Shown: positions 2,325 through 43,440 of the stretch, one piece after another
Layout of the letters: every line of letters starts with the position of its first letter
How positions within the stretch are numbered: position 1 is the first letter of the stretch
DNA from: an uncultured Candidatus Saccharibacteria bacterium
GTDB taxonomy: Bacteria; Patescibacteriota; Minisyncoccia; Phycocordibacterales; UBA9973
Assembly: GCA_964384645.1 (NCBI GenBank)
Contig: CAYLKL010000003.1
Span: 9,101 to 73,100 of the forward strand
Direction: 5' to 3'
DNA length: 64,000 nt
Made by a program: the position numbers and the translations under genes
Notes under the pieces: model-generated
Seen by the model: only the letters and a program-made list of their open reading frames with translations
The model's database searches: none
Told to the model about the DNA's origin: nothing

Positions 2325-5063
2325 CTAAGCAGAATAACGACTTAAAATTTCAGCTTCGACAATTTTACGATCTTTTCCATATTTCAAATGTGAAAGCTCT
2401 TTAATCTTTTGAGCTAATTCTCTATTTCCTTCAGTTGGCTTCATTGTCCTAAGACTAAATGGTTTTGCAGGAAATCCATTTACGAGCATTTTTACATATG
2501 CATTTCTATTTTCTAATTTTTGTAAATCAAGTCCAGTAAAAGTAGGCTCAAATTGTTTTGCCAAAAAGTCTGCATCGTCTACTCCGATTCTAAAAGCAAC
2601 CATAGAGCCAACGTTTCCAAAAACAGCATTTTTTATACCTTCATCTATTTGAGCAATATATTGATGCGCTAAGTTAAGTCCTAGTTTGTATTTTCGAGCT
2701 TCCGAGAGAATCTGACTGATAGAATTTGTTGTGACATTTTGAAACTCATCGATGTAAAGATAAAACGGGGGCAAATCCTTACCAATTGAATCAACCCTAG
2801 AAAGTGCCGCCATAAACAATTTCCCAACAATCACAAGACCCAAAAGGTTTGAGTTTATCTCCCCCAACCTTCCTTTTGAAAGATTTACTAAAAATATTTT
2901 CTTACCGTCAATTATTTCCCTGAAATTCAGCGATGACTTTTGTTGAACAACAATTGGTCGCATTATTTCATTTGTTATAAAAACATCAAATTTATTGGTT
3001 ATGTAATTTACGTAGTTTGCCAAAGATGCTTCTCCGGTCGTCTTTTCTGCGCTTTCCCAAAATTGCCTAATTATTGGATTTACACATTTAGCAATCAATC
3101 TTTGTCGATATTCTTTGTTTGCCAAAACTCTACCAATTTCAAGAAGCGTCGCCCCTTCGGCTGGGTCATCCATTGCAAGTAGGGCTGAATTTCTAAAATA
3201 TTGCTCAAAAGCTGGACCCATACTTTCTGGAGTTCCTCCAAAAAGTTTTCTAAAAATAGAAAGAAGTTCATCGACAACAAAAGTCTTCTGCTCAGGAAAA
3301 CGAACATCATATTCCAACATATTAAGACCAATTGGCCTATCTATTGAACCTGGATCAAAATAAATAACGTCATCAGCTCGCTCTGGTGGAATATTTGCAA
3401 GAATATCTTCTATGTCATTTCCGTGCGGATCAATAAAACAAACACCTTCGCCATTTAAAATATCTTGAACAATCATATTTTTCAAAATGGTTGTTTTTCC
3501 AGTTCCAGTTTGTCCAATAACATACAAATGCCTAAGTCTATCTTCGGGAGAAAATTTTACTTCGGTTTCTTGTCCACGATAAGAATTTATTCCAAGCAAT
3601 ACCCCCTTATTAGAAACTTCTGCTGGCGCAGGAGAGAGAGTCATCGCACTTTGTGCAATGTGAGGAGAATCAATTGTGTTCTCTGGCATATGAACCATGC
3701 TAGCAATTTCTCTTTGTGTTAAAGGTAAATTATTTTCTTCTTTAAAAATTCTATAAGAAAAAGAGTGTAGTTCATCAAATAATCTAGATTCACCCACGTT
3801 TTGGAAAACTAATGAATTTGAAGTTGTGTCAGTGAACTGATTGAAAGCAGAAGATATTTCCCTTACCATCTGCTCTGTTCTTTCTTTTGTTGATGCTGAT
3901 ACAACTATACGAATATTTGCAGACAAAATAGTTGAAGTAAGCTTCTTGTTCATTTTTTCTATATTACTCCGTAGTTTTTCATCATCTTTTTTGTCGTCCT
4001 TATTTTCATCTTTTTTAACAGGAGCAGAAAAGAAATCTTTAGCTGCATTTTTCAAAGCACCACCCCAAGAATCTAATCCACTATAAACTTCTTTAACATT
4101 TCCGCCATTTCTAACTTGATCAAGAATTCTGTTGTATCTTTTTATAAAAGCATCTCCAACAGGCTTTACAACAAATTGAATAGACGCACCCTCTCCTGGT
4201 TGATTGAACTTTGAAAAAGCGGAAATTATTGAAGACATCGGATCTGTAGCACCATCTTCAAACGAACGAAGCGGAAAAACAGGTAGATCAGTTAGTTTGG
4301 CAATAGACGCAACGGCATAGCCTTGCTCATTAAAAATATTGTAATCATCTGGAACCTCTTTTATTTTTGCATCTGGATAAACCGCTAACATGTTTTTCTC
4401 AAAAAGATCAGCACGTGAAGCTGGCACAGCTACGTACAAAGACATGTTCGATCCATGATTCTCTACAGCAAGTTCAAGCGTGAAATATTCTTTTCCTTCT
4501 ATAGTCCTCCCGTCACCTACAGCCTGCATACCAGAGAGAAATTGCTCCATCCCTGCAATCAAAGATGCTGGAGTCTTTTTTTCTTTATCAAAATTTGGCA
4601 AACTAACTTCAAAAAGTCGCATAGAAAGACCCTTATTTTCTTCAAGCCCTTCTCTTAAGTCGCTCGGTTTTTGTCCAGTTATTAAATATTGAACTAAGAA
4701 TCTATGGAAATCATCATCTAGATGAGGATTATTCATCTTCTTTAAAACAGAAAAAGTGTTTTTTAAACCTTTTTCTAGCATCAATCCAAAAAACTCTTCT
4801 ATTTTTCTATCGTGAGTCTCTGGTGTAAGACTTAAAACGATTTGCTCCGCCTCTTGTCTTGGAATTAAATTATCAGGTATTACTTTCTCTGCAGGAACGA
4901 ATTTATAAGCGTCGATTGCGTCTTTGGCAACTTGCTCGAGTGGAATATTCTTTCTTTCCTCTGTTAGTTGTTTTTCTCTATTACTAATATGTTCTCGCAA
5001 ATAGCTAATCTCCTCTTCAGGAGTAGTAAATTTTGGTAGATCTTTGAAAAATTGATTTTCCAT
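2325..5063 (-). CDS. TraG/TraD/VirD4-family (T4SS coupling-protein-like) P-loop ATPase with a ~500-aa N-terminal non-membrane domain
   Basis: Walker A VIGQTGTGKTT and Walker B LYIDEFQN in the C-terminal half. No N-terminal TM helices. 912 aa. Confidence 0.55.
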   Translation of the reverse strand: MENQFFKDLPKFTTPEEEISYLREHISNREKQLTEERKNIPLEQVAKDAIDAYKFVPAEKVIPDNLIPRQEAEQIVLSLTPETHDRKIEEFFGLMLEKGLKNTFSVLKKMNNPHLDDDFHRFLVQYLITGQKPSDLREGLEENKGLSMRLFEVSLPNFDKEKKTPASLIAGMEQFLSGMQAVGDGRTIEGKEYFTLELAVENHGSNMSLYVAVPASRADLFEKNMLAVYPDAKIKEVPDDYNIFNEQGYAVASIAKLTDLPVFPLRSFEDGATDPMSSIISAFSKFNQPGEGASIQFVVKPVGDAFIKRYNRILDQVRNGGNVKEVYSGLDSWGGALKNAAKDFFSAPVKKDENKDDKKDDEKLRSNIEKMNKKLTSTILSANIRIVVSASTKERTEQMVREISSAFNQFTDTTSNSLVFQNVGESRLFDELHSFSYRIFKEENNLPLTQREIASMVHMPENTIDSPHIAQSAMTLSPAPAEVSNKGVLLGINSYRGQETEVKFSPEDRLRHLYVIGQTGTGKTTILKNMIVQDILNGEGVCFIDPHGNDIEDILANIPPERADDVIYFDPGSIDRPIGLNMLEYDVRFPEQKTFVVDELLSIFRKLFGGTPESMGPAFEQYFRNSALLAMDDPAEGATLLEIGRVLANKEYRQRLIAKCVNPIIRQFWESAEKTTGEASLANYVNYITNKFDVFITNEIMRPIVVQQKSSLNFREIIDGKKIFLVNLSKGRLGEINSNLLGLVIVGKLFMAALSRVDSIGKDLPPFYLYIDEFQNVTTNSISQILSEARKYKLGLNLAHQYIAQIDEGIKNAVFGNVGSMVAFRIGVDDADFLAKQFEPTFTGLDLQKLENRNAYVKMLVNGFPAKPFSLRTMKPTEGNRELAQKIKELSHLKYGKDRKIVEAEILSRYSA

Positions 5064-6385: not shown

Positions 6386-6997
6386 TTATTTATTAAAAAC
6401 TTTTTGAATCAGTTCGTTGTGCACCTCTTCAATTGTCTGCTCTCCATTTATTTCAATAAAATTATAAATACCACTATCCCGAAGATGATTCATGGCAGGT
6501 ACAACTTCATTGTCGAACCAATTTAGTCTTTTCTCAACTCCTTCTTCTGTGTCATCAAAACGCCCACGCCCAACAAGTCTTTCTTTTGACCAGTTTCGAC
6601 TTACGTTTAGATGAACAACTATTGGTTTAACTCTTCCATAAAAACCCATAACAGAATCTAAAATAACAGACTCTGAATAAGTTCTCGGTGTGCCGTCTAA
6701 AATGATATGATTATTTTCTTTTAAGTTCTCTATTAAGATATGAGACCAAATATGAATAGCCAAAAAGGCTGGCTGAAGATCGCCGTTTGAATAAATTTCT
6801 TTCGCGAGTTTACTTGTGAATGAATCACCTTCTATCATCTCCCGGAATTTTGCTCCAGTTTCAAGAGAAAAAATCTCTCTACTTTCAGAGTCATTTTGTT
6901 TTATGTAATCTTTTAATAGGGCTACCTGAGTCCCCTTTCCGCAACCTGAGCGACCCATAAAAATTATTGTCTGTAGTTCCATTTGTATATTATACAA
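6386..6997 (-). CDS. adk: Adenylate kinase
   Basis: P-loop GRSGCGKGTQ and LID/NMP-binding pattern; secY-adk-map order. The true start may be the internal Met (MELQTIIF). Confidence 0.85.
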   Translation of the reverse strand: MYNIQMELQTIIFMGRSGCGKGTQVALLKDYIKQNDSESREIFSLETGAKFREMIEGDSFTSKLAKEIYSNGDLQPAFLAIHIWSHILIENLKENNHIILDGTPRTYSESVILDSVMGFYGRVKPIVVHLNVSRNWSKERLVGRGRFDDTEEGVEKRLNWFDNEVVPAMNHLRDSGIYNFIEINGEQTIEEVHNELIQKVFNK

Positions 6998-10996: not shown

Positions 10997-11002
10997 ATAA
11001 TT

Positions 11003-11033
11003 CAAAATAAAAAAGCTGGTTTTATCCAGCTTT
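11003..11033 (-). terminator. Intrinsic terminator after the inserted hypothetical gene
   Basis: Stem agctgg / ccagct followed by a T-run on the minus strand, directly downstream of the stop at 11037. Confidence 0.7.
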
Positions 11034-11036
11034 AGA

Positions 11037-11660
11037 TTAGGCACTACTTGCCAAATTTTTTAAATGAAACTCAGCCTGTTTTTTAATAGACTCTAAATGT
11101 CTTTTTTGATACAACTCAGCACCTTCATTTATTATCGCCTCAATGCCTTTTATATCGGGTTGTCTGAGATTCTTATTCTCAATCCGATTAAACAATACAG
11201 ATATCGCTTCCCTCTTACTATTCATTTCTTCTTCGTTGTAAAGTTTGGTGTGGTTGAAATCTGATTTTTCCGACCATTTTTTTATCTTTTTGTATATAAA
11301 CTTTACCCAAAGATAATCAAAAGGGTGAAATAGTACGTAAAGCAAAGTTAATGTGGAGAAGAAAAAAATAACACCTAGCAATTCCTTACTTAATTTATAT
11401 CCTACGGGTAAGACTTGCGTGTTATTAACCTCCAAATTCAACTCAAAGAATACATATAACAAAGACATAACAATCATAGCCGAAACAAGACCTAGCACAA
11501 TAATGCTGACTCTGTACCAAAATAAGTATAACCATAGATGATCTCTGAGCTCATAAAACCTCAATCTATTTTCTTTGGTCACCAAAAAAGATTCGAACCC
11601 GCTAATCTCTTTAAGGTTTTTAAAGACATCTTCAATGTTTATTATTTTATTTTTCTTCAT
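11037..11660 (-). CDS. Hypothetical membrane protein (2 TM) inserted inside the spc operon
   Basis: 207 aa with hydrophobic helices WLYLFWYRVSIIVLGLVSAMIVM and GVIFFFSTLTLLYVLF. No recognisable family. Confidence 0.5.
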   Translation of the reverse strand: MKKNKIINIEDVFKNLKEISGFESFLVTKENRLRFYELRDHLWLYLFWYRVSIIVLGLVSAMIVMSLLYVFFELNLEVNNTQVLPVGYKLSKELLGVIFFFSTLTLLYVLFHPFDYLWVKFIYKKIKKWSEKSDFNHTKLYNEEEMNSKREAISVLFNRIENKNLRQPDIKGIEAIINEGAELYQKRHLESIKKQAEFHLKNLASSA

Positions 11661-11726
11661 AATATTTAGTTTTTAGAGTTTCGTAAACTTTACTCTTTGG
11701 ATAAAAATTGTCAATAAAATAAAGCC

Positions 11727-12080
11727 TCAATTGAGGCTTTTAGTTGAAAATAATTTTTTTAATTGTGATTTTGTAACATAACTAGCAAGTCGTTCAGTGT
11801 CATTATTTTGAATAAATTCTATACTTTTTACTTCTTTATTCTCCACAACAACCTCAACGAAACAACCGTACAATTCATATAGAGCGAAGGTCTCTTTTTT
11901 TATTTTTTTAAGTTTAACAAAAGTACCACTTTCCAACAGAACACCAGCTCTTTCCTCAAGAGATATATCTACTTTAAATTCCAAACCTTTCATAGTTCTA
12001 AGTTTTATTTTAGAAACAATACTACAATAAATTAAAAAAGTAGCAAGTCTTTTACACTTCTCATAAAATAAAAAAACCAC
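11727..12080 (-). CDS. Hypothetical small protein inserted inside the spc operon
   Basis: ORF-track start is a GTG buried in the rplE terminator hairpin. The true start is more likely the internal ATG at 11993 (MKGLEFKV..., 88 aa). Confidence 0.35.
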   Translation of the reverse strand: MVFLFYEKCKRLATFLIYCSIVSKIKLRTMKGLEFKVDISLEERAGVLLESGTFVKLKKIKKETFALYELYGCFVEVVVENKEVKSIEFIQNNDTERLASYVTKSQLKKLFSTKSLN

Positions 12081-15337: not shown

Positions 15338-15688
15338 TTATTTCTTTTTCTTATCATCTGAAGATGAAGCTTTTGCGGCCTTAGCTGCTGCAATTTCAGA
15401 TTCTTTTGCTTTTGCTTCAAGTTCTTTTTGCATCTTACCTCCGTGTCTTCTAAATGTCTTAGTTGGAGAGAATTCACCCAATCTGTGACCAACCATATCT
15501 TCTGTTGCTAGGACTTCAATGTGGTTTTTTCCATTGTGAACACCAAAAGTGAAACCAACCATTTCTGGACTGATTACACATGCTCGTGACCATGTTTTAA
15601 TAACCCCGATTTCTCGAGGGTTTTTTCCTAGCACTTTCTTTAGGACTCTTTCGTCAACGTAAGGTCCTTTTTTAGTTGATCTTGTCAT
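15338..15688 (-). CDS. rpsS: 30S ribosomal protein S19 with an Ala/Lys-rich C-terminal tail
   Basis: [19 protein letters not shown] and [18 protein letters not shown]. The ORF-track start at 15745 is probably an upstream over-extension. Confidence 0.9.
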
Positions 15689-15827
15689 AAGGGTAAAATA
15701 AATAGCTCTCCAAAGAGCTAGAGACAGATTAGCAGAAAGAGCCATACCTTGTCAAATTATTAATCAGTTAGGGTTGATATTTAGCCACAAATAGTTACTA
15801 TAAGAAAAACACTTTAAAAACTATCAT

Positions 15828-16754
15828 ATGCAATACACTAAAACACCCCAAAAATTACCCGTTTCTCCATTAGGAAATGGAGCTGGAATCATAAAAACAG
15901 AAGATGATTTCAACAAGTTTCTGAAAATTGAAGATATTCCAGAAATATTGATTGGAAGCATTACTTCCCTTCCCCGTGAAGGCAATTCCGGAAACACTTT
16001 TTATTCTGGGCCAGGATATACACTAAATGCACTCGGGTTGCCGAACCCCGGAATTCAGTACTGGCTAGAAAATGATCGACTGAAAAAATGTGCAGAAAGG
16101 GCGCATAAAAAAGAAAAGCAAGTTGGGATAAGTATTGTTGGATTCAAAGAAGGAGAACTTGGAGAAATCGCCCAAATTGCCGAAGATGCTGAGATTGATT
16201 TCATTGAGATTAATGCTGGATGTCCTAATGTCTGGGCCGAAGGTAAACAAAAAGAAATTATAAGTTTCTCTTCTGAGGCATTATCCTTTGCTCTAGGAGA
16301 AATTTATGGGGCGACCGAAAAAATAAAAATTGGCTTCAAACTTTCTCCATATTCAAACCCCGGAGAACTTGAGAGAATTGCTAAATTCTTTAATCTCACC
16401 CACAAAGCCTTTGATAGAATCTCTTTCATTACCACCTGTAACACTTTCCCAAATTCATTCTCAGAAGATGAGGAAGGAAATCCACGAATAAGTGCCAATA
16501 ATGGTTACGGCGGAATGGCTGGAGAAGCAATCATTGCAATTGCTCTGGGGCAAGTAAAACAATTCAAAGCAGTCTTAATACCCGAAATTAAAATAAAGGG
16601 AGTCGGCGGAATAACAAAAGGAAGTGATGTAAGGAATTTTTTTAAAGCAGGAGCCTCGATGGTTCAGATTGTTTCAGCTTATTACCGAAACGAAGACCTT
16701 AGTGTCTTCTCTCGCATAAGGGCAGAGTACGAAATGCTTACAGAAAAAGTGTAA
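15828..16754 (+). CDS. pyrD: Dihydroorotate dehydrogenase, class 1 (Cys active-site base)
   Basis: FIEINAGCPN active-site motif and IKGVGGITKGSDVRNFFKAGASMVQIVSAYY C-terminal FMN-binding pattern. Confidence 0.7.
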   Translation: MQYTKTPQKLPVSPLGNGAGIIKTEDDFNKFLKIEDIPEILIGSITSLPREGNSGNTFYSGPGYTLNALGLPNPGIQYWLENDRLKKCAERAHKKEKQVGISIVGFKEGELGEIAQIAEDAEIDFIEINAGCPNVWAEGKQKEIISFSSEALSFALGEIYGATEKIKIGFKLSPYSNPGELERIAKFFNLTHKAFDRISFITTCNTFPNSFSEDEEGNPRISANNGYGGMAGEAIIAIALGQVKQFKAVLIPEIKIKGVGGITKGSDVRNFFKAGASMVQIVSAYYRNEDLSVFSRIRAEYEMLTEKV

Positions 16755-16767
16755 TACCTTATAGGGC

Positions 16768-16798
16768 AAAACGGCGCAGTAGTGCGCCGTTTTTTTAT
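16768..16798 (+). terminator. Intrinsic terminator after pyrD
   Basis: Stem acggcgca-gtag-tgcgccgt followed by TTTTTTT. Confidence 0.75.
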
Positions 16799-16850
16799 TT
16801 GCAATAAAAAAATAAAAATGTAGGATGAAGCAAACTTTAAAAAATATCAT

Positions 16851-17894
16851 ATGAAAGAAATCCAAATTATAAGACCTAGTGATATGCATTTACACTTCCG
16901 TGAAGGAGAAATGCTAAATCTTGTAGCTCCGCACACCGCACGACATTTCTATTATGGACTCGTTATGCCGAACACGACCAACCCACCTATTCGAACTGGA
17001 GAAAATGCAAAAAATTATGAGGAGCAGATTTTATCTGCAACAAAAGATTACCCTCATTTCATTCCAGTCATGACGATTAAAGCCTATGACACCGATGAAC
17101 ACCTAACAACTCCAGAGGTTGTAGAGGGAGCATATTCAAATGGCGCCAAAGCAATAAAAGTTTATCCTCAAGGCGCGACTACTAATTCTCATGATGCTGT
17201 TAAAGATATTAAAAAACTTTACCCTGCATTTGAAAAAGCAGAAGAGCTCGGAATGAGAGTATGTCTCCACGGAGAAAAACCAGATGATGAAATAATTGCT
17301 CTGGAATGGGAAAGACTTTTCTATAGTGATGTAAAAGAGTTATATAAAACTTTTCCAGAATTACGAATTATCTTTGAACACATTACTTGCGAAAGCACTA
17401 TTGGTTTCATTCAAGATGCACCGGACAATGTAGCAGCTACAATTACTGCCCATCACGCACTGGTTAATTTCAATCATCTCGCAGGTGGAATGTTGCGCCC
17501 CGACTTGTACTGCAAACCTCTACTTAAATCCCCGCAGGATCAAAAAGCGCTCCGGAAAATTATGATAAGTGGAAACCCAAAATTCTTCCTGGGAACAGAC
17601 AGTGCTCCACACGTTGAAGAGAAAAAATATTGTGACCATGGATGTGCAGGAGTTTATACTGCCCCAATTGCAATGTCTCTTTACACCCAGATCTTCTATG
17701 AAGAAGGTGAGCTATCTAGACTCGAGAATTTTTCATCAGTTTTTGGACCAAGGTTTTATGGTCTTGAAATTCCAACTGAAAAAATTACCGTTATAAAAGA
17801 AGAATTCATCCCTAATAAATTTTATCAAGAAGGAAACCTTAAGATAAATAATTACTGGGGTGGTATGAAGCTCGACTGGAAAGTTAAAGAATAA
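16851..17894 (+). CDS. pyrC: Dihydroorotase, type II (E. coli PyrC-like)
   Basis: SDMHLHFREGEM HxH metal site. ...KVYPQGATTNSHD..., RIIFEHIT, ...LGTDSAPH...CGCAGV are collinear with E. coli PyrC as recalled. Confidence 0.85.
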   Translation: MKEIQIIRPSDMHLHFREGEMLNLVAPHTARHFYYGLVMPNTTNPPIRTGENAKNYEEQILSATKDYPHFIPVMTIKAYDTDEHLTTPEVVEGAYSNGAKAIKVYPQGATTNSHDAVKDIKKLYPAFEKAEELGMRVCLHGEKPDDEIIALEWERLFYSDVKELYKTFPELRIIFEHITCESTIGFIQDAPDNVAATITAHHALVNFNHLAGGMLRPDLYCKPLLKSPQDQKALRKIMISGNPKFFLGTDSAPHVEEKKYCDHGCAGVYTAPIAMSLYTQIFYEEGELSRLENFSSVFGPRFYGLEIPTEKITVIKEEFIPNKFYQEGNLKINNYWGGMKLDWKVKE

Positions 17895-17898
17895 ATTG

Positions 17899-17927
17899 AA
17901 AGAGACCTGAAATGGTCTCTTTTTTAT
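17899..17927 (+). terminator. Intrinsic terminator after pyrC
   Basis: Stem agagacc-tgaaat-ggtctct followed by TTTTTT. Confidence 0.75.
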
Positions 17928-17984
17928 TTGCCCCAAAATAGTAGGTGTGATAGAAATATGAAAATTCATTTAAAAACAAAAACT

Positions 17985-18725
17985 ATGTCAAAACTACAAA
18001 GAAATGCAGAAGCCCTCGCTGAATGGGCTCTTAAAATTGGAGCAATAAAAATAAACCCGAAAGATCCATTTAAGTGGGCTTCCGGCTGGAGAAGTCCAAT
18101 TTATAATGACAATCGAATGTCGCTAGGCTATCCCGAGATGTTTCAAAGAGTCGTTGAGTCTTTTTCAGACCTTCTATCTGAAACTTTCCAAGGTGACTGG
18201 AAAAGAGAAATTGATGTAATTATGGGAACATCTACGGCTGGAATCCCGCACGCGACTATTCTTGCTTATCTTCACGGACTTCCGTTTGGATACATAAGAG
18301 ATAAAGCTAAAGACCACGGTCTGAAAAATCGGATAGAAGGAATAGATGTCGACAAAGATTTATCCGGCAAAAGAGTTTTGCTTATTGAAGACCTTATTTC
18401 AACTGGCGGAAGCAGTGTAAGCGCTGTGCAAGCAATAAGAAACGCCAATGGAAAAATCGATCATTGCATTTCAATTTTCAATTATGGTTTTCCAAAAGCC
18501 AAAGAAATGTTTGCCGGAAATGCTTCATTTTCAAAAGATGGAGTAGAACGACTTTCTGAACCATGCCAGATTTATTCACTCTTGGATTACCCCACTCTTC
18601 TTGAGGTTGCTATCAAAGTAGATTACATAAGCGAAGAAGACAGGGCTATGCTTGATGAATGGAGTAAGGATCCGGAAAGCTGGAGTAATAACTGGAAATC
18701 TCAGAACGAGAAAGTTTCAGCGTAA
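17985..18725 (+). CDS. pyrE: Orotate phosphoribosyltransferase
   Basis: VLLIEDLISTGGSSVSAV PRPP-binding motif and GWRSPIYND. The ORF track starts at 17928; the likely start is the ATG at 17985 (MSKLQRN). Confidence 0.8.
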   Translation: MSKLQRNAEALAEWALKIGAIKINPKDPFKWASGWRSPIYNDNRMSLGYPEMFQRVVESFSDLLSETFQGDWKREIDVIMGTSTAGIPHATILAYLHGLPFGYIRDKAKDHGLKNRIEGIDVDKDLSGKRVLLIEDLISTGGSSVSAVQAIRNANGKIDHCISIFNYGFPKAKEMFAGNASFSKDGVERLSEPCQIYSLLDYPTLLEVAIKVDYISEEDRAMLDEWSKDPESWSNNWKSQNEKVSA

Positions 18726-18737
18726 GTTTTGAAATAA

Positions 18738-18772
18738 AAACAGGGAGACACAAATGTGTCTCCCTTTTTAAT
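18738..18772. terminator. Bidirectional intrinsic terminator between pyrE (+) and pyrF (-)
   Basis: Stem gggagacac-aaat-gtgtctccc with an A-run upstream and a T-run downstream. Confidence 0.8.
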
Positions 18773-18781
18773 TTAAATTGA

Positions 18782-19660
18782 TTAGTGAATAGATTGAGCG
18801 CGTAGTTCCATAACTTCTTTACGATATTCTGTTATGAGATCATGGGTCTCTTGAGCTGCTTCTCTGATGTTGCCTTTTGTGAAAATTATTCCACTCGAGG
18901 AATTAATAATGACTCCTGTTCCAAAACGATCTAGTCCATTTTCCACCACCTGCTTAAGGCTTCCTCCTTGTGTGCCTACACCAGGAATAAGAATTGGAAT
19001 ATCCCCTATAATCTCCCGAATTATTTGTAATTCTTCAGGATATGTTGCGCCGGCCACCAACAAACAATTACCATTTATGTTCCACTTATCACGCACGGTT
19101 TCTGCCACAACTTCAAAAAGTTTTTTGAATTGGGAATTACCAACCCTTACTTCTAAATCCTGAAATTCACCTGCTCCAGAATTAGAAGTCCGACAAAGCA
19201 CAATTACGCCCTTATCTTTTTGGTCAAGAAATGGCTTCATGGCTTCGCTTCCAAGATACGGATGTACCGTAATAGCATCGGCTTCGAGTTCATCAAAAAT
19301 TCCAGCAATATAGCCCATATTGGTATTCCCAATATCAGCTCTCTTTCCGTCCAGAATAATTGGAACATCTGGTGCAACATCATCCAGATATGCTTTTGTT
19401 CCAAACAATGCGGCAATTCCAATTTCTCCGTGAGCTTCGTAAAAAGCAATATTCGGCTTATAGGCACAAACAAGATCTTTTGTTTGATCGATCACCATTT
19501 TATTGAATTCGATAATAGTATCGAGTATTCGATGTCGGCTGTCTATAAATTTGTCGTGGATGAATTGGGGGATTTTTTTGTATTCAGAATCAAGCCCAAC
19601 ACATAAAAATTTATCTTCTGCCCATTTGGCGCGAAGCATTTCCATAAAGTTTCTTTCCAT
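18782..19660 (-). CDS. pyrF: Orotidine 5'-phosphate decarboxylase (long type-2 form)
   Basis: FLCVGLD, KPNIAFYEA and ILDGKRADIGNT (DxKxxDIxxT) motifs. Confidence 0.75.
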   Translation of the reverse strand: MERNFMEMLRAKWAEDKFLCVGLDSEYKKIPQFIHDKFIDSRHRILDTIIEFNKMVIDQTKDLVCAYKPNIAFYEAHGEIGIAALFGTKAYLDDVAPDVPIILDGKRADIGNTNMGYIAGIFDELEADAITVHPYLGSEAMKPFLDQKDKGVIVLCRTSNSGAGEFQDLEVRVGNSQFKKLFEVVAETVRDKWNINGNCLLVAGATYPEELQIIREIIGDIPILIPGVGTQGGSLKQVVENGLDRFGTGVIINSSSGIIFTKGNIREAAQETHDLITEYRKEVMELRAQSIH

Positions 19661-19721
19661 AATTTTTGTTTTTAAATGTGAATTTTCTTCAGATTAACCT
19701 TCTAGTTCAAGAATGTCAATC

Positions 19722-19750
19722 AAAAAAACCGCCCAATGGGCGGTTTTTTG
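19722..19750 (-). terminator. Intrinsic terminator after rplB
   Basis: Minus-strand stem ccgccc-att-gggcgg followed by TTTTTTT, 4 nt after the rplB stop. Confidence 0.8.
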
Positions 19751-19753
19751 TTC

Positions 19754-20596
19754 TTATTTCTTTCGTCGAGATTTTACTCTTCGTGTAACAATAAGCTTGT
19801 TTGAGTACTTCTTTGGAGTTCGTGTCTTTCTTCCTCCTGTAACCTTACCATGACGTGTTTTAGGGCGTCTTAGACCTCGTCCTTGTCGTCCTTCTCCTCC
19901 ACCGTATGGGTGGTCAACAGGGTTCATGGCAGTACCTCGAACAGTTGGTCTAATACCAAGCCATCGTGAGCGTCCAGCCTTACCAAAATTCTTCAACTTG
20001 TGTTCTTCGTTTGAAACTGAACCAATAGTAGCCCAGCATTCTTCAGAAACTTTTCGAACTTCAGTTGATGGCATTTTGATTTGAGAATACCCAGCGTCGT
20101 TTGCAACAACTTGAGCGAAACTTCCAGCAGAACGAACAAGCTTTGCGCCTCCGTTTGCTTTTAGTTCAATGTTGTAAACAAAAGTACCAGATGGAATTTT
20201 CTTCAAAGGAAGTCTGTTTCCGATCGTTACTGGTGCATCAGCTGAAACAATAAAAGTATCACCTACTTTTACGTTCTTCGAAGCAAGAACATATCTTCTT
20301 TCGCCGTCTTTATACAAAGCTCGAGCAATAAAAGATGATCTATTTGGATCGTATTCTACGTGTTCCACTTTAGCAGGGATATTTTTCTTGTCATACATGA
20401 AATCAACATCTCTGAAAAGTCTCTTATTTCCACCACCTTTGTGTTGAGTTGTAACACGACCAAGGTTATTTCTTCCAACACTTCTCTTTCTTCCATAAGT
20501 CAAAGACTTTAGAGGATCATTCGTTGTGATTTGACCTCGATAGTTTACTGTTATCATCCCACGTCGTGATGGTGTTGTTGGTTTATACTTTTTCAT
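19754..20596 (-). CDS. rplB: 50S ribosomal protein L2
   Basis: GRNNLGRVTTQHKGGG... and MNPVDHPYGGGEGR pattern. 280 aa. Confidence 0.95.
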   Translation of the reverse strand: MKKYKPTTPSRRGMITVNYRGQITTNDPLKSLTYGRKRSVGRNNLGRVTTQHKGGGNKRLFRDVDFMYDKKNIPAKVEHVEYDPNRSSFIARALYKDGERRYVLASKNVKVGDTFIVSADAPVTIGNRLPLKKIPSGTFVYNIELKANGGAKLVRSAGSFAQVVANDAGYSQIKMPSTEVRKVSEECWATIGSVSNEEHKLKNFGKAGRSRWLGIRPTVRGTAMNPVDHPYGGGEGRQGRGLRRPKTRHGKVTGGRKTRTPKKYSNKLIVTRRVKSRRKK

Positions 20597-24304: not shown

Positions 24305-25036
24305 TTAGTCGGCTTTTAGTCCCACAGTTGTGATTACTTCATAGGCGAAATCTTCCGGGGTTTGAATTTCATCCCAAGGAGGATTTTCTCCAATGGTAAT
24401 TTCATTGAATTGTTTATGGGCCAAAGGACTGTTTATAAGTCCCGGTTCAAAAAGATAGACTTCTTCAAAAATCCCCTCTTCCTTTAAATCTTTAGCTAAT
24501 TTGGCAACTGCTTTCATAGAAGCAATATATCCCTCTTCTTTGTAGCCAGTCTTAAGATTAAGCCTTCTAGGGTCATCTTCAGCAAAATTTGCAGCATGAG
24601 AACCAATTAAAATAACTTTTGTCTTCTTATTAATGTTTTTTGGAAGCTTTTTAAGAGATTCAATTACAGCAACTTTAGTCTTAAAGTTTGCATTCATGAG
24701 ATCATTGGCTACTTGCTCTGCAGTTTTTGGATTTTCCATTCGCTTGTCGTTATCCCATTCAAAACTCCCCGCAGCCAAATCTACTGCATCAAAATAAACA
24801 TCAACGGCCGACATGTTAAAAATAAACACATTAACAGAATTTGAATCCTCCAAATCAAATCCATCATACAAATACACTCGTAAATCGCGCTTACCATCTA
24901 CCTTAAACATTTCTTCTGCCTTCTTTATATCTCTAACCATGGCGTAGACTTCATAGCCAAGTCTAAGAAATTTTTGAGCAATTTCGAAGCCGACACTACC
25001 TGTTACTCCTCCCACTAATGCTTTTTTAGTTTCCAT
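24305..25036 (-). CDS. NAD(P)-binding Rossmann-fold protein (SDR / NmrA-like), inserted between fusA and tuf
   Basis: N-terminal LVGGVTGSVGFEIAQKFLRLGYEVYAMVRD GxxGxxG dinucleotide-binding motif. 243 aa. Confidence 0.55.
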   Translation of the reverse strand: METKKALVGGVTGSVGFEIAQKFLRLGYEVYAMVRDIKKAEEMFKVDGKRDLRVYLYDGFDLEDSNSVNVFIFNMSAVDVYFDAVDLAAGSFEWDNDKRMENPKTAEQVANDLMNANFKTKVAVIESLKKLPKNINKKTKVILIGSHAANFAEDDPRRLNLKTGYKEEGYIASMKAVAKLAKDLKEEGIFEEVYLFEPGLINSPLAHKQFNEITIGENPPWDEIQTPEDFAYEVITTVGLKAD

Positions 25037-28315: not shown

Positions 28316-28735
28316 TTATTTAGCAGCTTTAGGTCTCTTTGCTCCGTATAGTGATCGACTCTTTCGTCTTGCGTCTACTCCTGTAGTATCAAGTCTTCCT
28401 CGAACGATGTGGTATCGAACTCCAATCAAGTCCTTAACACGACCTCCTCTAAGTATTACCACAGAGTGTTCTTGTAGGTTGTGTCCCATACCTGGAATAT
28501 AAGCTGTTACTTCTTGTCCATTTGTTAGTCTTACTCTAGCGATTTTTCGAACAGCTGAGTTAGGTTTCTTTGGTGTAGTTGTTGTTACTTTAGTACATAC
28601 CCCTCTCTTGAATGGAGATGGATAAAAAACCGGTCGGTTCTTCAAAGTATTGAAGCCACGACTAAGAGCAACAGTTCGTGTTGCTTTTTTTGATTTAGTT
28701 CTTGGTTTTTTTACTAATTGACTTATTCTTGCCAT
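28316..28735 (-). CDS. rpsL: 30S ribosomal protein S12
   Basis: [28 protein letters not shown]...[18 protein letters not shown]. The likely start is the ATG at 28735 (MARISQLV); the ORF track over-extends. Confidence 0.95.
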
Positions 28736-28764
28736 AAAAACAAAATGCACCGATGTGCCGAAAC

Positions 28765-28793
28765 ACTTTAACAAATATGTAGATTTTATGCAA
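28765..28793 (-). promoter_or_regulatory. Candidate sigma70 promoter of the str operon
   Basis: Minus strand reads TTGCAT (28788-28793), a 17-nt spacer, then TAAAGT (28765-28770). It lies ~30 nt upstream of the rpsL start. Confidence 0.35.
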
Positions 28794-28837: not shown

Positions 28838-31246
28838 TTAAACTACTGGCTCCTCTCCTGCATCAGGTGTGTCTGTTGGAGCGTCTCCCCCTTGATCAGA
28901 CCCATCATCTTGGGTATCTGGAGTCTGACCTCCATCACCCTCTGGTTGACCGCCATCATCAACAACGTCGCCACTATCTGTGCCTCCATTAGAATCCGAA
29001 TTAGTATCGACGTTACTTTGTTCTAAAATTTGCAAAAATTGATCTCGAGTGACACAAACATCTTCAACACAAAGTTCTTTGGTTGTTATTTTATCTGTAA
29101 TAATTTCTACAAAATTTACCACACCATTTATTGTCTTTTGAATTCCACTTTCTAAATATTCAACAACCGAAGATAAACTTAGACCACTATTTCCACCTCC
29201 AACATTCATTGAATCAACTTTTAGGTTCAAATCTTGGATAGATTTCACAATCAAAGGTGTAAGTTTTGAATAATCTACCATCCAATATTTATCCTCTTCT
29301 TCTGGAACCATAACAGCATCTGGGTACACTTCAAAAAGTTCCTGAGCAATCACACCGTGAGTTAATTTCTGACTAGGATCATTTTTCCAATTAAAATCTC
29401 GTATTTTTATGTCTAAAAGACTGTCCAAAGACAAATCTGTATCTTCAATGTTTTCCTTAAGCCTTTGGTCTGAAGTTGTATTGTAGGATGTTGCGTTTGA
29501 AGCAAAAGTAATTGAACCAATAGTTGGATTACCTAGTGGATGAAAATTTATAAGAGTAGTTGGAGTAACATCTGATGGATCATTTCCTGCCACAACTGTT
29601 ATACCGAGATTTCCTGCAACACCTGAGGTGTTTTCAAATTTCGCAACAGCAGTCACAGGAGCTCCTCCAACGCTTAAAATATTCCCATTATCTATACTTG
29701 TACCGATATTTACTTCGCCCATAACATTAGCAAGGTAAATCCGCCCAACAGATCCAGCGTTAGAACCTGTCCCGCCCGCACCAGGATTTACATATATATC
29801 ACCCCCGTCTCCAGCTGTGTCAGAGGCACCAGTGGAATTACCCCCATCGCCAGCCAAGATATTAACGTCTCCACCAAAACCACCCTGTGCAGCTATGAAA
29901 CCTTGTTCTTCTCCATTACCTCCATCTCCAGCAAATAAATTCAAATTACCGGCATAGCCACCATTTGCAGTATTACCTACCGCGGTTCCATTTCCACCGT
30001 CCCCAGTAGAAATTGTGACATCTTGTCCAGAAGTACCAGCGGTATCTGTGTTATCAGCTCCATTTCCAGCAGATGCAACGATTACACCATTAGAATCCAA
30101 ATAAATCTGCCCTTCTGCACTTGTAGAATTAATTGCTCTGAAAGCATATGTTCCAGCACCGTCACCTAAAACATCGAGCGTTGAATCTGGTGAACTTGTA
30201 CCGACTCCTAAAAAATTATTAGTACTATTGTAAAAAAGTTGTGGTTCACCTTTTGATAATTGTTTCTGTCCAGAATTAGAAGTCCAAAAAGCAACTTGTC
30301 CTTCGAGTTGTGTACCGACACCTCCTTGTGTCACATAAGTTGATGGAGTAATACTCGTGTAAGTAATATTACTAGTACCAAAAACTGGTGCGTCTGTTTC
30401 TTGAACCCATTGTTTACCTTTTATTGTCCAGTTTCCACCTTCTGTGGCAATCACTATTTGTGGCGACATTTCACTCGGCTCGTCTGCATCGGTTGTTCTT
30501 GTTAAAACATATGGTGAACCGCCACTACCTAAACTTGTCACGATATAAACACCATTTTGAGTTTGCGCAGATTGATTTTTAACCAAAAGCCTATCGCCCA
30601 CACCAAGACTAATCCCGTTTATATTAGGCAAGGCACCATTTGTCGATTTTGTTATTGTTGCTCCAACACCAGAGCTTCCATTATCATAAGTCACGCCAGA
30701 AAGAGCTGCCGCTGTCCCTGCTCTAACTATTGTTGGAGATACAACCAAGTCATCGAAGTTTGGTGTTGCTAACCATTGATTCCCTCTTATTGACTCAAAA
30801 ATAAATCCTTTTCTATTACTTGTTAGATAAACAGTTGTTGTTTCATTTATGTAATCTCCAGAATATGCGTCTACTGTGACAGTATTCGAAGCCGATGTTT
30901 TTAAAACAGTAATTTTCCTGCTTTCTGTTACCGAAGATATCTGAGGAAGCACAATATTTACATCACCGGCGGCTGTATCTGCATAAATAACCTGATCGGT
31001 AGATAAAATACTATAAGGACTATCTGAGTCGTCGACGGTTGTGAAATTAACAACAGCAGGAGCAACGGCAGTTGTACAGTTTGTATCACTCGGTCCACAA
31101 GTTGGATCGAGAGTTATACCCGGTAAATATTTTGTAGTTGGTGGAGCAGAAAAAACAGTCAGTGTAGTAGAAAATAAAATGAAAAACAAAAGTATACCTG
31201 CTACTTTTTTCCAAACACTATCTGTATTTATTAAAAACTTTATCAT
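28838..31246 (-). CDS. Secreted tail-fibre-like protein: Gly-rich beta-helix-like repeats plus a C-terminal intramolecular-chaperone autoprocessing (peptidase S74-like) domain and an acidic tail
   Basis: N-terminal signal anchor. Long GDGGNG / GxGG repeat region. ...TTSDQRLKENIEDTDLSLDSLL... matches the S-D-x-R-x-K-E-N-I start of phage tail-fibre/endosialidase chaperone domains (Ser ~residue 592, nt ~29471). C-terminal D/E/G/P-rich tail. Confidence 0.6.
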   Translation of the reverse strand: MIKFLINTDSVWKKVAGILLFFILFSTTLTVFSAPPTTKYLPGITLDPTCGPSDTNCTTAVAPAVVNFTTVDDSDSPYSILSTDQVIYADTAAGDVNIVLPQISSVTESRKITVLKTSASNTVTVDAYSGDYINETTTVYLTSNRKGFIFESIRGNQWLATPNFDDLVVSPTIVRAGTAAALSGVTYDNGSSGVGATITKSTNGALPNINGISLGVGDRLLVKNQSAQTQNGVYIVTSLGSGGSPYVLTRTTDADEPSEMSPQIVIATEGGNWTIKGKQWVQETDAPVFGTSNITYTSITPSTYVTQGGVGTQLEGQVAFWTSNSGQKQLSKGEPQLFYNSTNNFLGVGTSSPDSTLDVLGDGAGTYAFRAINSTSAEGQIYLDSNGVIVASAGNGADNTDTAGTSGQDVTISTGDGGNGTAVGNTANGGYAGNLNLFAGDGGNGEEQGFIAAQGGFGGDVNILAGDGGNSTGASDTAGDGGDIYVNPGAGGTGSNAGSVGRIYLANVMGEVNIGTSIDNGNILSVGGAPVTAVAKFENTSGVAGNLGITVVAGNDPSDVTPTTLINFHPLGNPTIGSITFASNATSYNTTSDQRLKENIEDTDLSLDSLLDIKIRDFNWKNDPSQKLTHGVIAQELFEVYPDAVMVPEEEDKYWMVDYSKLTPLIVKSIQDLNLKVDSMNVGGGNSGLSLSSVVEYLESGIQKTINGVVNFVEIITDKITTKELCVEDVCVTRDQFLQILEQSNVDTNSDSNGGTDSGDVVDDGGQPEGDGGQTPDTQDDGSDQGGDAPTDTPDAGEEPVV

Positions 31247-33345
31247 TATAAATTTATTTTGAACACTTCGTTTATGTAACCCTTGTTTGCATTTATAACG
31301 CCTGATTTGAATACTGTTTTATAAGATTCATCTGCCAATTTTTGGTCTATTTCAACATAATAATTTCCTTGTGGCATCAAACAATAATATTGTCCGTATT
31401 TATTTGCCACTTTTTTAGAAATCAAAGTCTGTGTATCAGAATTGTATACTTTTATTATAGCAAATGAGATAGGATTCCCTTCCACATCCAAAATTTTTCC
31501 AAAATTTTTCGTTTTTATACCTGTTTCTCTTAAAAATAGAAGAATTAGGTACAAGCAAAAGACTAAAATATTGTAAGTTGAAAAAGAGGAAAGAATTGCT
31601 AGACATGAAACTGTAAATCCAAAAGAAAAGAAAGAGTCAGAAAGCTTTGTCAAAAAAACATCTCTTTTTGAATAATACTTCATCAGTTTTTGATCTCGCT
31701 TTGCAAATTCATTCCAATCAAAACCAATTGGATCCATTGGGATATTCTTGATAATCACGTCACCTGCTCTACTTACCTCAAAAACATCTCCGAAATACAA
31801 ATCCAAATATATTTCATCACGAGTTTTTCCCACCAATTTAAGTGACGGGAAAGAATAGTGAGTCTTTTTGGGTAACAGTCTATATTTTCCAGGCTCAACT
31901 AAAAATCCATAACGCCCATCCATATCAGTTATTGAGGATTGAATTTCTTTTCCTTCCAAATCTTGAAGAGAAACCATAACAGGATCTAGTGGTTGTTTTG
32001 TAACTGCATCATAAACAGTCCCCCAAGGTCTTGCTCTTTTTTTAATTCCAAAAGCACTCATAAGGGCTGACCACAATCTATACGGCAACATCCAAATTTC
32101 AGTAAAAGAAAGTGGTGTACCGAAAAGTTTTGGAAGAACAGAGAAAATTGCACCGAACAAAATTCCAACAATTCCAATCATTTTAATTATAGGATTGCCA
32201 TAATCACTCGTGATTATTTCTTTCATTTCATCAAAAGCAGCCAAAAAAGTATCTATAGTGTAATCATAGGTATCGATTATTATGCACCAAATGACACCCA
32301 ATATACTTGTTTCGTATTCGCACCCTGTCAGTGGGTCGAAAACATCGTCATCGCTTGGATCTTCTTCGTCATCATCAGTGGGAGGGTTATCATCGTCGTC
32401 AATTGGGTCCAAATCATCTCCCGGGTCTTCTTCATCTACTGGAACATCCTCGTCTGTTGGATCTTCCTCTTCATCAACAGGATCATCATCGCCAGGAGAA
32501 GAACACAAAGAATTTTGTGGATTTAGTGTACAAAAATCACCACCGAAATTTAAAATTATAATCCCAGTATAAACGTCTCCTCTAGAATTATCTATTGCTC
32601 GATATTTAAGTTCATAGTCACCTAAACTAGGCGGTGTCCAAGGAATAGAAATAGAATTGGAATTATTTACCAAAGCAACTAGTACGTCATCTATATAAAT
32701 AAAAATCTTTAAAATTGAACCGTCCGGGTCAGTAGCGTTTGCCGAAAGAGTAACATTTTGTAAAGTTGCATAGTTGTTGACTGTGTTGGTCGGATTTAGA
32801 ACAGTAATAATTGGTAAAATATTGTCATTTCCACCCCCACCACCTCCGCCAGTAACAACTGTGTTTCTCCAACTTGTATTTACACAGGCATCAACAACAC
32901 CACAATCAAATTGTATCCAGCCATAATTTTGACTCCAAGCATAACCATCAAAATTTCCATTGCTATCTATGGTTACAGTTTGAGCAGATGAATTATCAAA
33001 CGGTCCGAAATTTACCCAGCCAGCGTTCTCTCCCCAGGCAAAACCAGAAAGAACACCGCTTGTGGTATTGCTCACCTTAAAATCACTACCTCCACAAGAA
33101 CTATTATTTGAACAATTTAAACTAATCCAACCAATATTTTCTCCCCAAATATAACCCGTGAGTTCGCTTGATGTTACCGTGACGTTTTTATCTGAGTTGG
33201 TCGTAAAATAACCAAAATTTATAATACTACTATCGCTCTCTAATTTTGCTTTGTAATTTACAGAGTCGATGTTTCCAACGGCAAAAATAAAACTAGAAGG
33301 AAATAAAAATAGTGTTAAAAATAAAATTTTTTTTAGAAATTTCAT
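31246..33345 (-). CDS. Large polytopic surface protein: signal peptide, three G[FY]AW..GW[IV].F repeats, Ig-like domain, D/E/P-rich acidic linker, TM helices and two carboxypeptidase-regulatory-like beta-sandwich domains
   Basis: Repeats TGYIWGENIGWISLNCS, SGFAWGENAGWVNFGP and DGYAWSQNYGWIQFDC. GGGGGGG run. ~45-aa acidic linker. Hydrophobic helices at ~residues 390-440 and 560-600. GTVYDAVTKQPLDPVMVSLQD...DGRYGF carboxypeptidase-regulatory-like motif. 1-nt overlap with the downstream gene and 4-nt overlap with the upstream M50 gene. Confidence 0.55.
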   Translation of the reverse strand: MKFLKKILFLTLFLFPSSFIFAVGNIDSVNYKAKLESDSSIINFGYFTTNSDKNVTVTSSELTGYIWGENIGWISLNCSNNSSCGGSDFKVSNTTSGVLSGFAWGENAGWVNFGPFDNSSAQTVTIDSNGNFDGYAWSQNYGWIQFDCGVVDACVNTSWRNTVVTGGGGGGGNDNILPIITVLNPTNTVNNYATLQNVTLSANATDPDGSILKIFIYIDDVLVALVNNSNSISIPWTPPSLGDYELKYRAIDNSRGDVYTGIIILNFGGDFCTLNPQNSLCSSPGDDDPVDEEEDPTDEDVPVDEEDPGDDLDPIDDDDNPPTDDDEEDPSDDDVFDPLTGCEYETSILGVIWCIIIDTYDYTIDTFLAAFDEMKEIITSDYGNPIIKMIGIVGILFGAIFSVLPKLFGTPLSFTEIWMLPYRLWSALMSAFGIKKRARPWGTVYDAVTKQPLDPVMVSLQDLEGKEIQSSITDMDGRYGFLVEPGKYRLLPKKTHYSFPSLKLVGKTRDEIYLDLYFGDVFEVSRAGDVIIKNIPMDPIGFDWNEFAKRDQKLMKYYSKRDVFLTKLSDSFFSFGFTVSCLAILSSFSTYNILVFCLYLILLFLRETGIKTKNFGKILDVEGNPISFAIIKVYNSDTQTLISKKVANKYGQYYCLMPQGNYYVEIDQKLADESYKTVFKSGVINANKGYINEVFKINL

Positions 33346-43362: not shown

Positions 43363-43400
43363 AACTTATATAAGTATACAACTTTTGCAACTAAAAAAAT

Positions 43401-43430
43401 AAAAAACTCTGGATATCCAGAGTTTTTTAT
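43401..43430 (-). terminator. Intrinsic terminator after giant surface-protein gene 2
   Basis: Palindrome ctctggat|atccagag followed by TTTTTTT. Confidence 0.7.
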
Positions 43431-43440
43431 TTTTTTAGTT

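Follow-up and report, generated by a model that had tools for sequence, protein, structure and literature searches.

The S10 ribosomal-protein operon is the most conserved gene row in prokaryotes. Bacterial pyr operons group the genes for consecutive steps of uridine monophosphate (UMP) synthesis, as in Bacillus subtilis, where the row reads pyrR-P-B-C-AA-AB-K-D-F-E; the last four enzymes of the route lead from N-carbamoyl-aspartate through dihydroorotate, orotate and orotidine monophosphate (OMP) to UMP. Hotspots of gene exchange that contain no mobile element and are flanked by recombining core genes have been described in naturally transformable bacteria (Oliveira, Touchon, Cury & Rocha 2017, PMC5635113). 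Here, we describe a locus that touches on all of these. In a 64,000-nucleotide stretch of contig CAYLKL010000003.1 (assembly GCA_964384645.1), which we call the window, the genes for the last four steps of UMP synthesis, pyrD, pyrC, pyrE and pyrF, lie between rplB and rpsS in the S10 operon of an uncultured bacterium belonging to the Candidate Phyla Radiation (CPR). We consider it likely that the rplB|rpsS junction is a strain-variable hotspot of horizontal gene transfer without a mobile element, a long-standing and transcriptionally insulated cargo slot within the operon. In the open-access literature, we found no paper on gene insertions between rplB and rpsS in CPR bacteria.

How does this slot compare with the described systems? 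It shares with the hotspots of PMC5635113 a fast turnover of unrelated accessory genes between persistent genes, the lack of a mobile element and the presence of a ComEC uptake channel. It differs from these hotspots, which also go by the name of replacement or additive flexible genomic islands, in that it splits the S10 operon rather than lying between operons, and its cargo is very small (0.4 to 4 kb), made of single genes that each carry a promoter and a terminator of their own, in a minimal CPR genome. Integron cassettes resemble it as serial single-gene modules at a fixed site that vary between strains, but the slot has no attI or attC, its modules carry their own promoters and Rho-independent terminators and lie on both strands, and no integrase was found among the approximately 50 open reading frames (ORFs) of the window that were scanned. 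The cluster groups consecutive steps as bacterial pyr operons do, but it covers the last four steps only, in four monocistronic units on two strands, with no PyrR, attenuator or PyrK, and its enzyme types are mixed: a type II PyrC like that of Proteobacteria, a Bacillus-like PyrE, a type-2 PyrF and a class-1-like PyrD. Viruses carry pyrimidine genes as auxiliary metabolic genes, among them the same type II dihydroorotase, sometimes adjoining a DHO_dh gene; these are 33-48% identical and of very different GC content, their DHO_dh is unrelated to the PyrD of the window, and there are no viral genes near the cluster.

The hotspot reading is carried above all by strains of the same species. At least 11 other contigs, drawn from several projects, encode the exact L2 protein of the window, the product of rplB (100% identity). 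Their flanking DNA is 95.7-99.4% identical to that of the window, and the match ends at sharp breakpoints. Between these flanks, contig L081 has a single ORF of 129 aa (ORF129, METKNNFPEIYK...; 1402-1791) without a family match, while contig L084 has the same ORF as a pseudogene in which two TGG codons have turned into stops (3763-4150). Contigs L082, L083 and L086 have a different OMP decarboxylase gene of 282 aa (pyrF282), the product of which is 33% identical in amino acids to the PyrF of the window, followed by ORF129 (7140-7529 in L082). Contig L097, the only one that came from a metagenome scan using the rpsS promoter sequence, has ORF129 and approximately 290 bp of other sequence. In this species, ORF129 is the cargo met most often in the slot; neither it nor the other unknown cargo ORFs gave a match in Pfam, NCBIfam or PHROG searches. 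The sister strains have at this slot only a pyrF or no pyr gene at all.

The borders of the variable segment are sharp. The right junction lies at 15757..15758, directly upstream of ATTTGACAAGG, which is the rpsS promoter's -35 box. From that point toward rpsS, five alleles have the same sequence, and beyond it they are unrelated. The left junction lies at the start codon of pyrF, where the leader CTGAAGAAAATTCACATTTAAAAACAAAAATT-ATGGAAA matches the ORF129 leader of L082 and diverges after the first codons; the rplB terminator of the window is also found in L081 and L084. In all, there are at least four gene contents between identical rplB and rpsS flanks in one species, and six more in related lineages. 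The site is polymorphic, with the pyr cluster as a rare allele. Since near-identical strains lack the pyr genes at this position, they represent an insertion or a replacement rather than a fixed trait of the lineage, and the insertion proposed in an earlier note on this DNA is borne out in that sense. Judged by gene content, pyrimidine synthesis is a strain-level accessory trait at this slot. Six of the 15 contigs of the species and its closest relatives (L085, L090, L092, L093, L094, L095) stop within 100 bp past the rplB stop codon, a pattern to be expected when assemblers meet strain variation at the slot; strain-variable cargo would explain these breaks.

The break between rplB and rpsS is apparently older than the pyr genes. 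It was found in six of the seven related lineages sampled; in each, a terminator follows rplB, and a promoter precedes rpsS wherever the contig extends to it. The slot holds an NHL-like membrane protein gene in L087 (L2 identity to the window 92%); a 98-aa ORF and a diacylglycerol kinase (DAGK) gene in L096 (77%); DAGK, an Asp/Glu racemase and a 324-aa ORF in L113 (76%); two PG_binding_1 proteins and two unknown ORFs in L115-L118 (75%); the pilus genes T2SSE and T2SSF and more in L119 (74%), where the row is disrupted further downstream; and a pyr cluster plus DAGK in L098 (70%). The outgroup L120-L124 (71%) is canonical, with a 30-bp rplB-rpsS spacer and no terminator. By pairwise identity of L2 and L4, the window groups tightly with L087 and L095; L096 and L113 make up a second group, and the remainder are about equally distant. 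Taking taxon names from the nearest named homologs, the rplB-rpsS split is widespread in this part of the Paceibacteria (Patescibacteria/CPR). None of the 80 loci with pyrF relatives listed from GTDB had rplB or rpsS closer than 10 kb, and the matches listed did not include a close relative of the window. Comparison of synteny, which the earlier note had suggested as a way to learn whether the arrangement is universal in the lineage, gives a divided answer: the break is lineage-wide and the pyr cargo is not.

Promoters analogous to that of the window precede rpsS in L096, L113 and L115. The rplB terminator and the rpsS promoter occur in all alleles of the species and in relatives with other cargo, and the pyr insertion therefore did not force a start of transcription before rpsS, contrary to the view that it broke the operon and made a new start necessary. 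The promoter motif of rpsS is not new and, at 15755-15726, lies just outside the interval of 15746-15827 that had been proposed for the start. It reads TTGACA-N18-TAATCT on the minus strand and is conserved in all alleles of the species. It is followed in the transcript by a weak 5'-leader hairpin and then a U-rich run (15703-15720, minus strand; -8.3 kcal/mol, z -1.7). The hairpin core, AGCUC/GAGCU, is kept in L096, L113, L115 and L118 with variable loops and with one compensatory pair change, U-A to G-C, across lineages. The hairpin could stabilize the 5' end of the mRNA as a stem-loop, act as an attenuator, or serve the operon led by rpsS as an autoregulatory site; an Rfam search of the window, this leader included, matched no RNA family.

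Nearly all genes of the window are on the minus strand, where the str-S10-spc ribosomal supercluster runs in order from rpsL (28316-28774) down to secY, adk and map. The upstream S10 part ends with rplB (19754-20596, minus strand; TIGR01171, 364 bits), the left core flank of the slot, and the right core flank is rpsS, which heads the downstream operon (S19, 116 aa; 15338-15688, minus strand; TIGR01050, 115 bits). The true start of rpsS is ATG 15688 within an ORF spanning 15338-15745: the TIGR01050 alignment begins at ORF residue 20, the N-terminus MTRS(T/L)KKGPY is common to relatives, and ATG 15745 is flanked by the -35 and -10 boxes of the promoter that drives rpsS. Between the two flanks are pyrF on the minus strand (18782-19660; OMP decarboxylase type 2, 292 aa; TIGR02127, 217.2 bits against a cutoff of 110.6) and three genes on the plus strand: pyrE (17976-18725; Bacillus-type orotate phosphoribosyltransferase, OPRT, 249 aa; TIGR00336, a borderline 106.9 bits against 106.8), pyrC (16851-17894; homodimeric E. 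coli-like type II dihydroorotase, 347 aa; TIGR00856, 343.4 bits against 292.95) and pyrD (15828-16754; divergent class-1-like dihydroorotate dehydrogenase, DHODH, 308 aa; Pfam DHO_dh, 132 bits against 27). The start of pyrE is most likely at 17976, right after a leader matching that of pyrF, with 17949 and 17928 as alternatives. Profile matches in Pfam and NCBIfam thus confirm the gene content and strands given earlier, and intrinsic terminators were found after pyrD, pyrC, pyrE and rplB where they had been placed. Only the description of pyrF as convergent needs qualification: it is convergent with pyrE but shares its direction with rplB.

Every pyr gene comes with a sigma-70-like promoter motif, a leader rich in A and a strong intrinsic terminator of its own. 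The slot of the window strain thus reads as four single-gene expression units that would not be co-transcribed. The rplB terminator (19722-19749, minus strand) has a 12-bp stem and a U-run (-17.1 kcal/mol, z -4.9). It is followed by the putative promoter of pyrF, TTGACA-N17-TAATCT (19691-19719, minus strand), as read from the sequence, and then by the leader ...GAAAATTCACATTTAAAAACAAAAATT-ATG. The convergent pyrE and pyrF share a bidirectional terminator at 18742-18765 (-18.5 and -18.6 kcal/mol on the two strands, z approximately -5.5 and -5.2). On the plus strand, the pyrC terminator (17898-17923; -14.3 kcal/mol, z -5.8) runs directly into the putative pyrE promoter TTGCCC...TAGAAA (17928-17956). 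Similarly, the pyrD terminator (16768-16793, plus strand; -17.5 kcal/mol, z -4.5) is followed by the putative pyrC promoter TTGCAA-N16-TAGGAT (16799-16826, plus strand), a layout of -35 box, -10 box and leader that recurs before the pyrC of L098. The putative promoter of pyrD, TTGATA-N16-TACTAT (15774-15801, plus strand), is divergent from that of rpsS. Terminator-like sites number 13 in 10 kb, against 6.7 ± 2.8 in shuffled sequences.

The units also resemble one another. The pyrE and pyrF leaders are 95% identical over 21 nt, those of pyrD and pyrC 83% over 30 nt, and a terminator-into-promoter module, TTTTTTATTTG, is repeated at 16791 (after pyrD) and 17920 (after pyrC). The leader core ACTyTAAAAAC also stands before the native monocistronic genes at 11037-11660, 35823-37526 and 57563-58171, and the cargo therefore carries expression signals of the host type. 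Shine-Dalgarno-like sequences are lacking throughout the window: promoter-bearing genes have ACTyTAAAAAC approximately 8-10 nt before the ATG (examples are upstream of 11660, 37526, 57563, 15828 and 16851), and operon-internal genes have (T)AAAAWTTT-ATG in its place. This A-rich motif may be the translation-initiation signal of the lineage.

A mechanism can be proposed from these features. The rplB terminator and a separate rpsS promoter would let accessory genes sit in between without disturbing the expression of ribosomal proteins. The cargo would be swapped by recombination via the conserved ribosomal flanks, the recurring leader and terminator-promoter modules, or both, probably after DNA uptake, for which the window encodes ComEC (37586-39049). 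Within the species, the pyr allele would have replaced the ORF129 cassette and not vice versa, a direction favored by parsimony because ORF129 is present in every other allele.

The strongest competitor is that the pyr cluster is an ancient, vertically inherited resident next to rplB, which entered once in an ancestor shared with L098 and was lost or replaced elsewhere, the ORF129 alleles being derived. We regard this as possible but doubtful. It rests on L098, where rplD-rplW-rplB-pyrF gives way to pyrE, pyrC and pyrD on the opposite strand, the same architecture as in the window. DNA homology is continuous from rplB through its terminator into pyrF (66% over 1292 nt) and from the pyrC promoter through pyrC (68% over 1116 nt), so that these junctions must share ancestry; the rplB terminators of the two are near-identical. 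At the protein level, PyrF (51%) and PyrD (36%) fit a divergence as deep as that of L4 (45%; L2 is 70%), and the leader found twice inside the cluster, before pyrE and before pyrF, could be the cluster's own. On the other hand, PyrC is 69% identical, far more conserved than L4, other PyrC proteins in the databases being at most 48% identical to that of the window and mostly from Proteobacteria. The OPRT position holds non-orthologous enzymes, of Thermus type in L098 and of Bacillus type in the window, with no meaningful similarity. The GC content at third codon positions of the four genes (0.30-0.32) is approximately two standard deviations above the host mean (0.242 ± 0.028). ORF129 is found in every other allele from several independent samples, including the more divergent L081 (approximately 96%), whereas the pyr allele is found once, and vertical residence would need many independent losses, in L087, L096, L113, L115 and L119. 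The cluster is a mosaic, which fits gene-by-gene replacement inside a conserved frame.

Several points nevertheless weigh against the hotspot reading, or at least against its direction of exchange. The continuous homology with L098 across rplB and pyrF means that the pyr allele could be the old state and ORF129 the replacement, and the rplB terminators of the window, L081 and L084 are closer to that of L098 than to that of L082. The L098 contig stops before rpsS, and its OPRT gene (2877-3641) is split by an in-frame TAG into 81 and 162 aa, which could reflect a pseudogene or, as the Logan contig is unpolished, a read error. The lineage relations are taken from pairwise L2 and L4 identities rather than from a tree. 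The window allele comes from one assembly, and in a collection of 15 billion proteins its PyrC and PyrF were found on one contig only. No recombination machinery or site for the slot was identified. Finally, as the earlier note had said, pyrB, carA and carB are absent from the window: none of their domains was found in the approximately 50 ORFs scanned.

The absence of these first genes also bears on a second alternative, in which the cargo is silent, decaying or repurposed, so that there would be no working UMP pathway, or PyrD would act on another substrate. Sister strains manage without the cluster, the OPRT of L098 has its in-frame stop, and PyrD falls far below the NCBIfam cutoffs and lacks a lysine typical of class 1A, as detailed below. 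We hold this alternative to be unlikely, as none of the four ORFs is broken, the enzymes retain their metal ligands and catalytic residues, each gene has kept promoter, leader and terminator, and the clustering of four consecutive pathway steps argues for a pathway function.

The loss of catalytic residues that might have undone the gene assignments was not seen on alignment. The PyrC match to TIGR00856 spans the full length of the profile, above the equivalog cutoff, and H13, H15, K103, H140, H177, D250 and H254 are invariant in an alignment of 13 sequences, so that metal ligands and substrate residues are kept; we take the ligands of the binuclear metal center in E. coli dihydroorotase (an HxH motif, a carboxylated Lys, two His and an Asp) to be H16, H18, K102, H139, H177 and D250. 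In PyrF, D24, K68, D104, K106 and D109 are invariant among 30 aligned sequences, and the DxKxxD motif is intact. The closest solved structure to PyrE is Bacillus anthracis OPRT (PDB 3m3h, E 2.9e-41), aligned over the full length. The flexible catalytic loop, KAKDHG, aligns with it as 'rdkakdhg' against 'rskakghg', and the motif for phosphoribosyl pyrophosphate (PRPP), VLLIEDLISTGGS, as 'vlliedlistggs' against 'vvvvedlistggs'.

PyrD stands apart from the other three enzymes. Its best PDB match is the DHODA of Lactococcus lactis (E 1.6e-23), and its best solved relatives also include the fumarate-dependent DHODH of trypanosomatids, both of class 1A. It passes the general Pfam DHO_dh model but is below all NCBIfam equivalog cutoffs for DHODH, the best being NF002702 with 149.5 bits against 301. 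Like class 1A enzymes, it is a soluble protein of approximately 310 aa with a catalytic Cys in a CPN motif, orotate-binding Asn residues and an equivalent of the FMN residue Lys164. C132 (in GCPN), the Cys base of class 1 rather than the Ser of class 2, is invariant in all 25 aligned members of its subfamily, as are N67 and N129, while N205 and N209 are conserved in at least 90% and K171, the Lys164 equivalent, is conserved. It differs from class 1A in its approximately 25-30% identity to solved structures, its sub-cutoff scores and its small separate subfamily, and in Lys43 (L. lactis numbering), an FMN-contacting residue of class 1A DHODH: it aligns to Gly43 of PyrD, all 25 members have Gly at that position, and an invariant Gly-Ser gives them a class-2-like VGSIT motif. 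Because it is shared by the whole subfamily, in which the catalytic Cys is invariant, this Gly is a family trait and not a sign of decay. As to class 1B, the slot has no PyrK ORF, and the neighbors of pyrD are rpsS and pyrC. Class 2, with its N-terminal membrane or quinone-binding extension and its Ser base, does not fit either, as PyrD has 308 aa with the DHO_dh domain starting from residue 13 and a Cys base, and class 2 models match it with E values of only 1e-9 to 1e-12. The subfamily comprises 216 clusters with E values of at most 1e-30 among 1.84 billion representatives, the best identity being 48%. It is a candidate enzyme class, whose electron acceptor matters in organisms where redox metabolism is nearly absent.

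A third alternative is that a mobile element (phage, integrative and conjugative element, transposon or integron) brought the pyr genes site-specifically into the rplB-rpsS spacer. The second-closest PyrC (48%) is indeed encoded next to DHO_dh on a phage-like contig of 105 kb, L099; 13 viral contigs in IMG/VR encode this type of dihydroorotase, two of them with an adjacent DHO_dh; and the window has a gene for a TraG/VirD4-like ATPase. We judge it quite unlikely, however. No integrase, transposase, tRNA or att-like direct repeat is at or near the slot. Integrase, transposase and phage genes were found in none of the alleles (Pfam tables, with PHROG for the unknown ORFs), a tRNA search of the window gave none, and apart from the shared leaders and the terminator-promoter module no repeats were found at the slot. 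Plasmid and phage collections gave no DNA match to the insert. The viral homologs are 33-48% identical and mostly on contigs of 50-63% or 24-28% GC, and each cassette has its own promoter, unlike those of integrons. A phage as the direct donor was rejected, since L099 and viral DHO_dh proteins are unrelated to the PyrD of the window, the GC content of most viral contigs differs and PyrC identity is at most 48%. Adjacent DHO_dh and type II dihydroorotase genes were seen on L099 (7013-9032), L100 and L103, viral or phage-like contigs of 105-436 kb with 50-59% GC; L099 also encodes a protein-primed DNA polymerase B, RtcB and a Ro60/TROVE protein. Contigs of giant-virus metagenome-assembled genomes (MAGs; GC 24-28%) also encode type II dihydroorotase.

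An assembly or binning artefact, by which a 4-kb pyr segment from another organism was joined into the ribosomal contig, is very unlikely even though the allele is seen in one assembly only and contigs of the species often break right after rplB. Regulatory sequences of the species itself stand at both junctions, the ORF129 leader serving as the 5' leader of pyrF at one and the rpsS promoter adjoining the other. To form a chimera, the assembler would have had to make two joins and come back to the exact neighboring position in one and the same genome. The GC content and the leader motifs agree with those of the host, and the independent assembly of the distant relative L098 has the same order rplB-pyrF-pyrE-pyrC-pyrD.

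The hotspot without a mobile element may be part of something wider. Tentatively, and with rather low confidence, rplB|rpsS can be viewed as the clearest exchange site of a Paceibacteria clade in which fusA|tuf and rplE|rpsN are probable others, self-contained single-gene cassettes being swapped one by one at leader and terminator-promoter modules in an integrase-free but integron-like manner. If this were true, pyrimidine synthesis and other core metabolic functions would be strain-level accessory traits in CPR bacteria, tuning nucleotide dependence on the host. Between fusA and tuf, the window has a gene for a 243-aa short-chain dehydrogenase (24305-25036, minus strand) that interrupts the str operon; at the same junction, L082 and L083 have a 229-aa short-chain dehydrogenase whose DNA is approximately 73% identical to that of the window, the neighboring genes being 99% identical. 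This is probably a second variable slot. Between rplE and rpsN/rpsH, a segment (11000-11713) holds a 207-aa ORF without a family match (11037-11660, minus strand), with a TTGACA promoter and the leader ACTCTAAAAAC, and adjoins an ORF at 11727-12080. In place of this segment, L081 has ORFs of 81 and 93 aa, and L096 has at this junction a cytidylate-kinase-like gene, truB and a 258-aa ORF. This looks like a third variable slot in the supercluster. In the outgroup L120-L124, a Y1 (IS200-like) transposase gene lies directly upstream of tuf (841-1494), and unknown genes follow rplE in place of rpsN and rpsH.

Elsewhere in the window, the TraG/VirD4-like coupling ATPase (912 aa; 2325-5063, minus strand) is accompanied by genes for very large surface proteins at 28838-33345 and 39823-48618 (minus strand), with Big_7 Ig-domains (1179 and 1725 aa) and a CarboxypepD_reg or Peptidase_S74 chaperone domain. 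These features fit an episymbiotic lifestyle. The ORFs of 1179 and 1725 aa had been candidates for rpoB and rpoC, which was ruled out by their Big_7 Ig-domains.

What would the cluster do for its bearer? If active, the four enzymes would make UMP from N-carbamoyl-aspartate, or from imported dihydroorotate or orotate, together with PRPP, and the first steps of the pathway would be encoded elsewhere or bypassed by uptake of an intermediate. The window also has ndk (1725-2234) and adk (6386-6997). According to a preprint, de novo nucleotide synthesis is lacking in 93% of Patescibacteriota genomes, and its genes are phylogenetically scattered (bioRxiv 10.64898/2026.06.21.733656). The suggestion that pyr genes are unusual in a CPR genome holds for pyrC and for this type of pyrD but not for pyrF. 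Homologs of pyrF with 55-60% identity number in the thousands; those that bear a name come from Patescibacteria, and the gene often adjoins pyrE.

The slot gives a concrete genomic mechanism for the phylogenetic scatter of nucleotide-synthesis genes in Patescibacteriota. The case for host dependence in these bacteria rests centrally on their inability to make nucleotides, and here the last four steps of UMP synthesis differ at one locus between strains with flanks that are approximately 99% identical, so that inferring metabolism from one MAG per species can mislead. The S10-spc row, which is held to be practically invariant and serves as a backbone of CPR phylogenomics and binning, carries strain-variable cargo in this lineage, which calls for caution against assumed synteny. 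More generally, a streamlined genome with scant intergenic space can gain genes through an insulated 'safe harbor' beside conserved recombination anchors.

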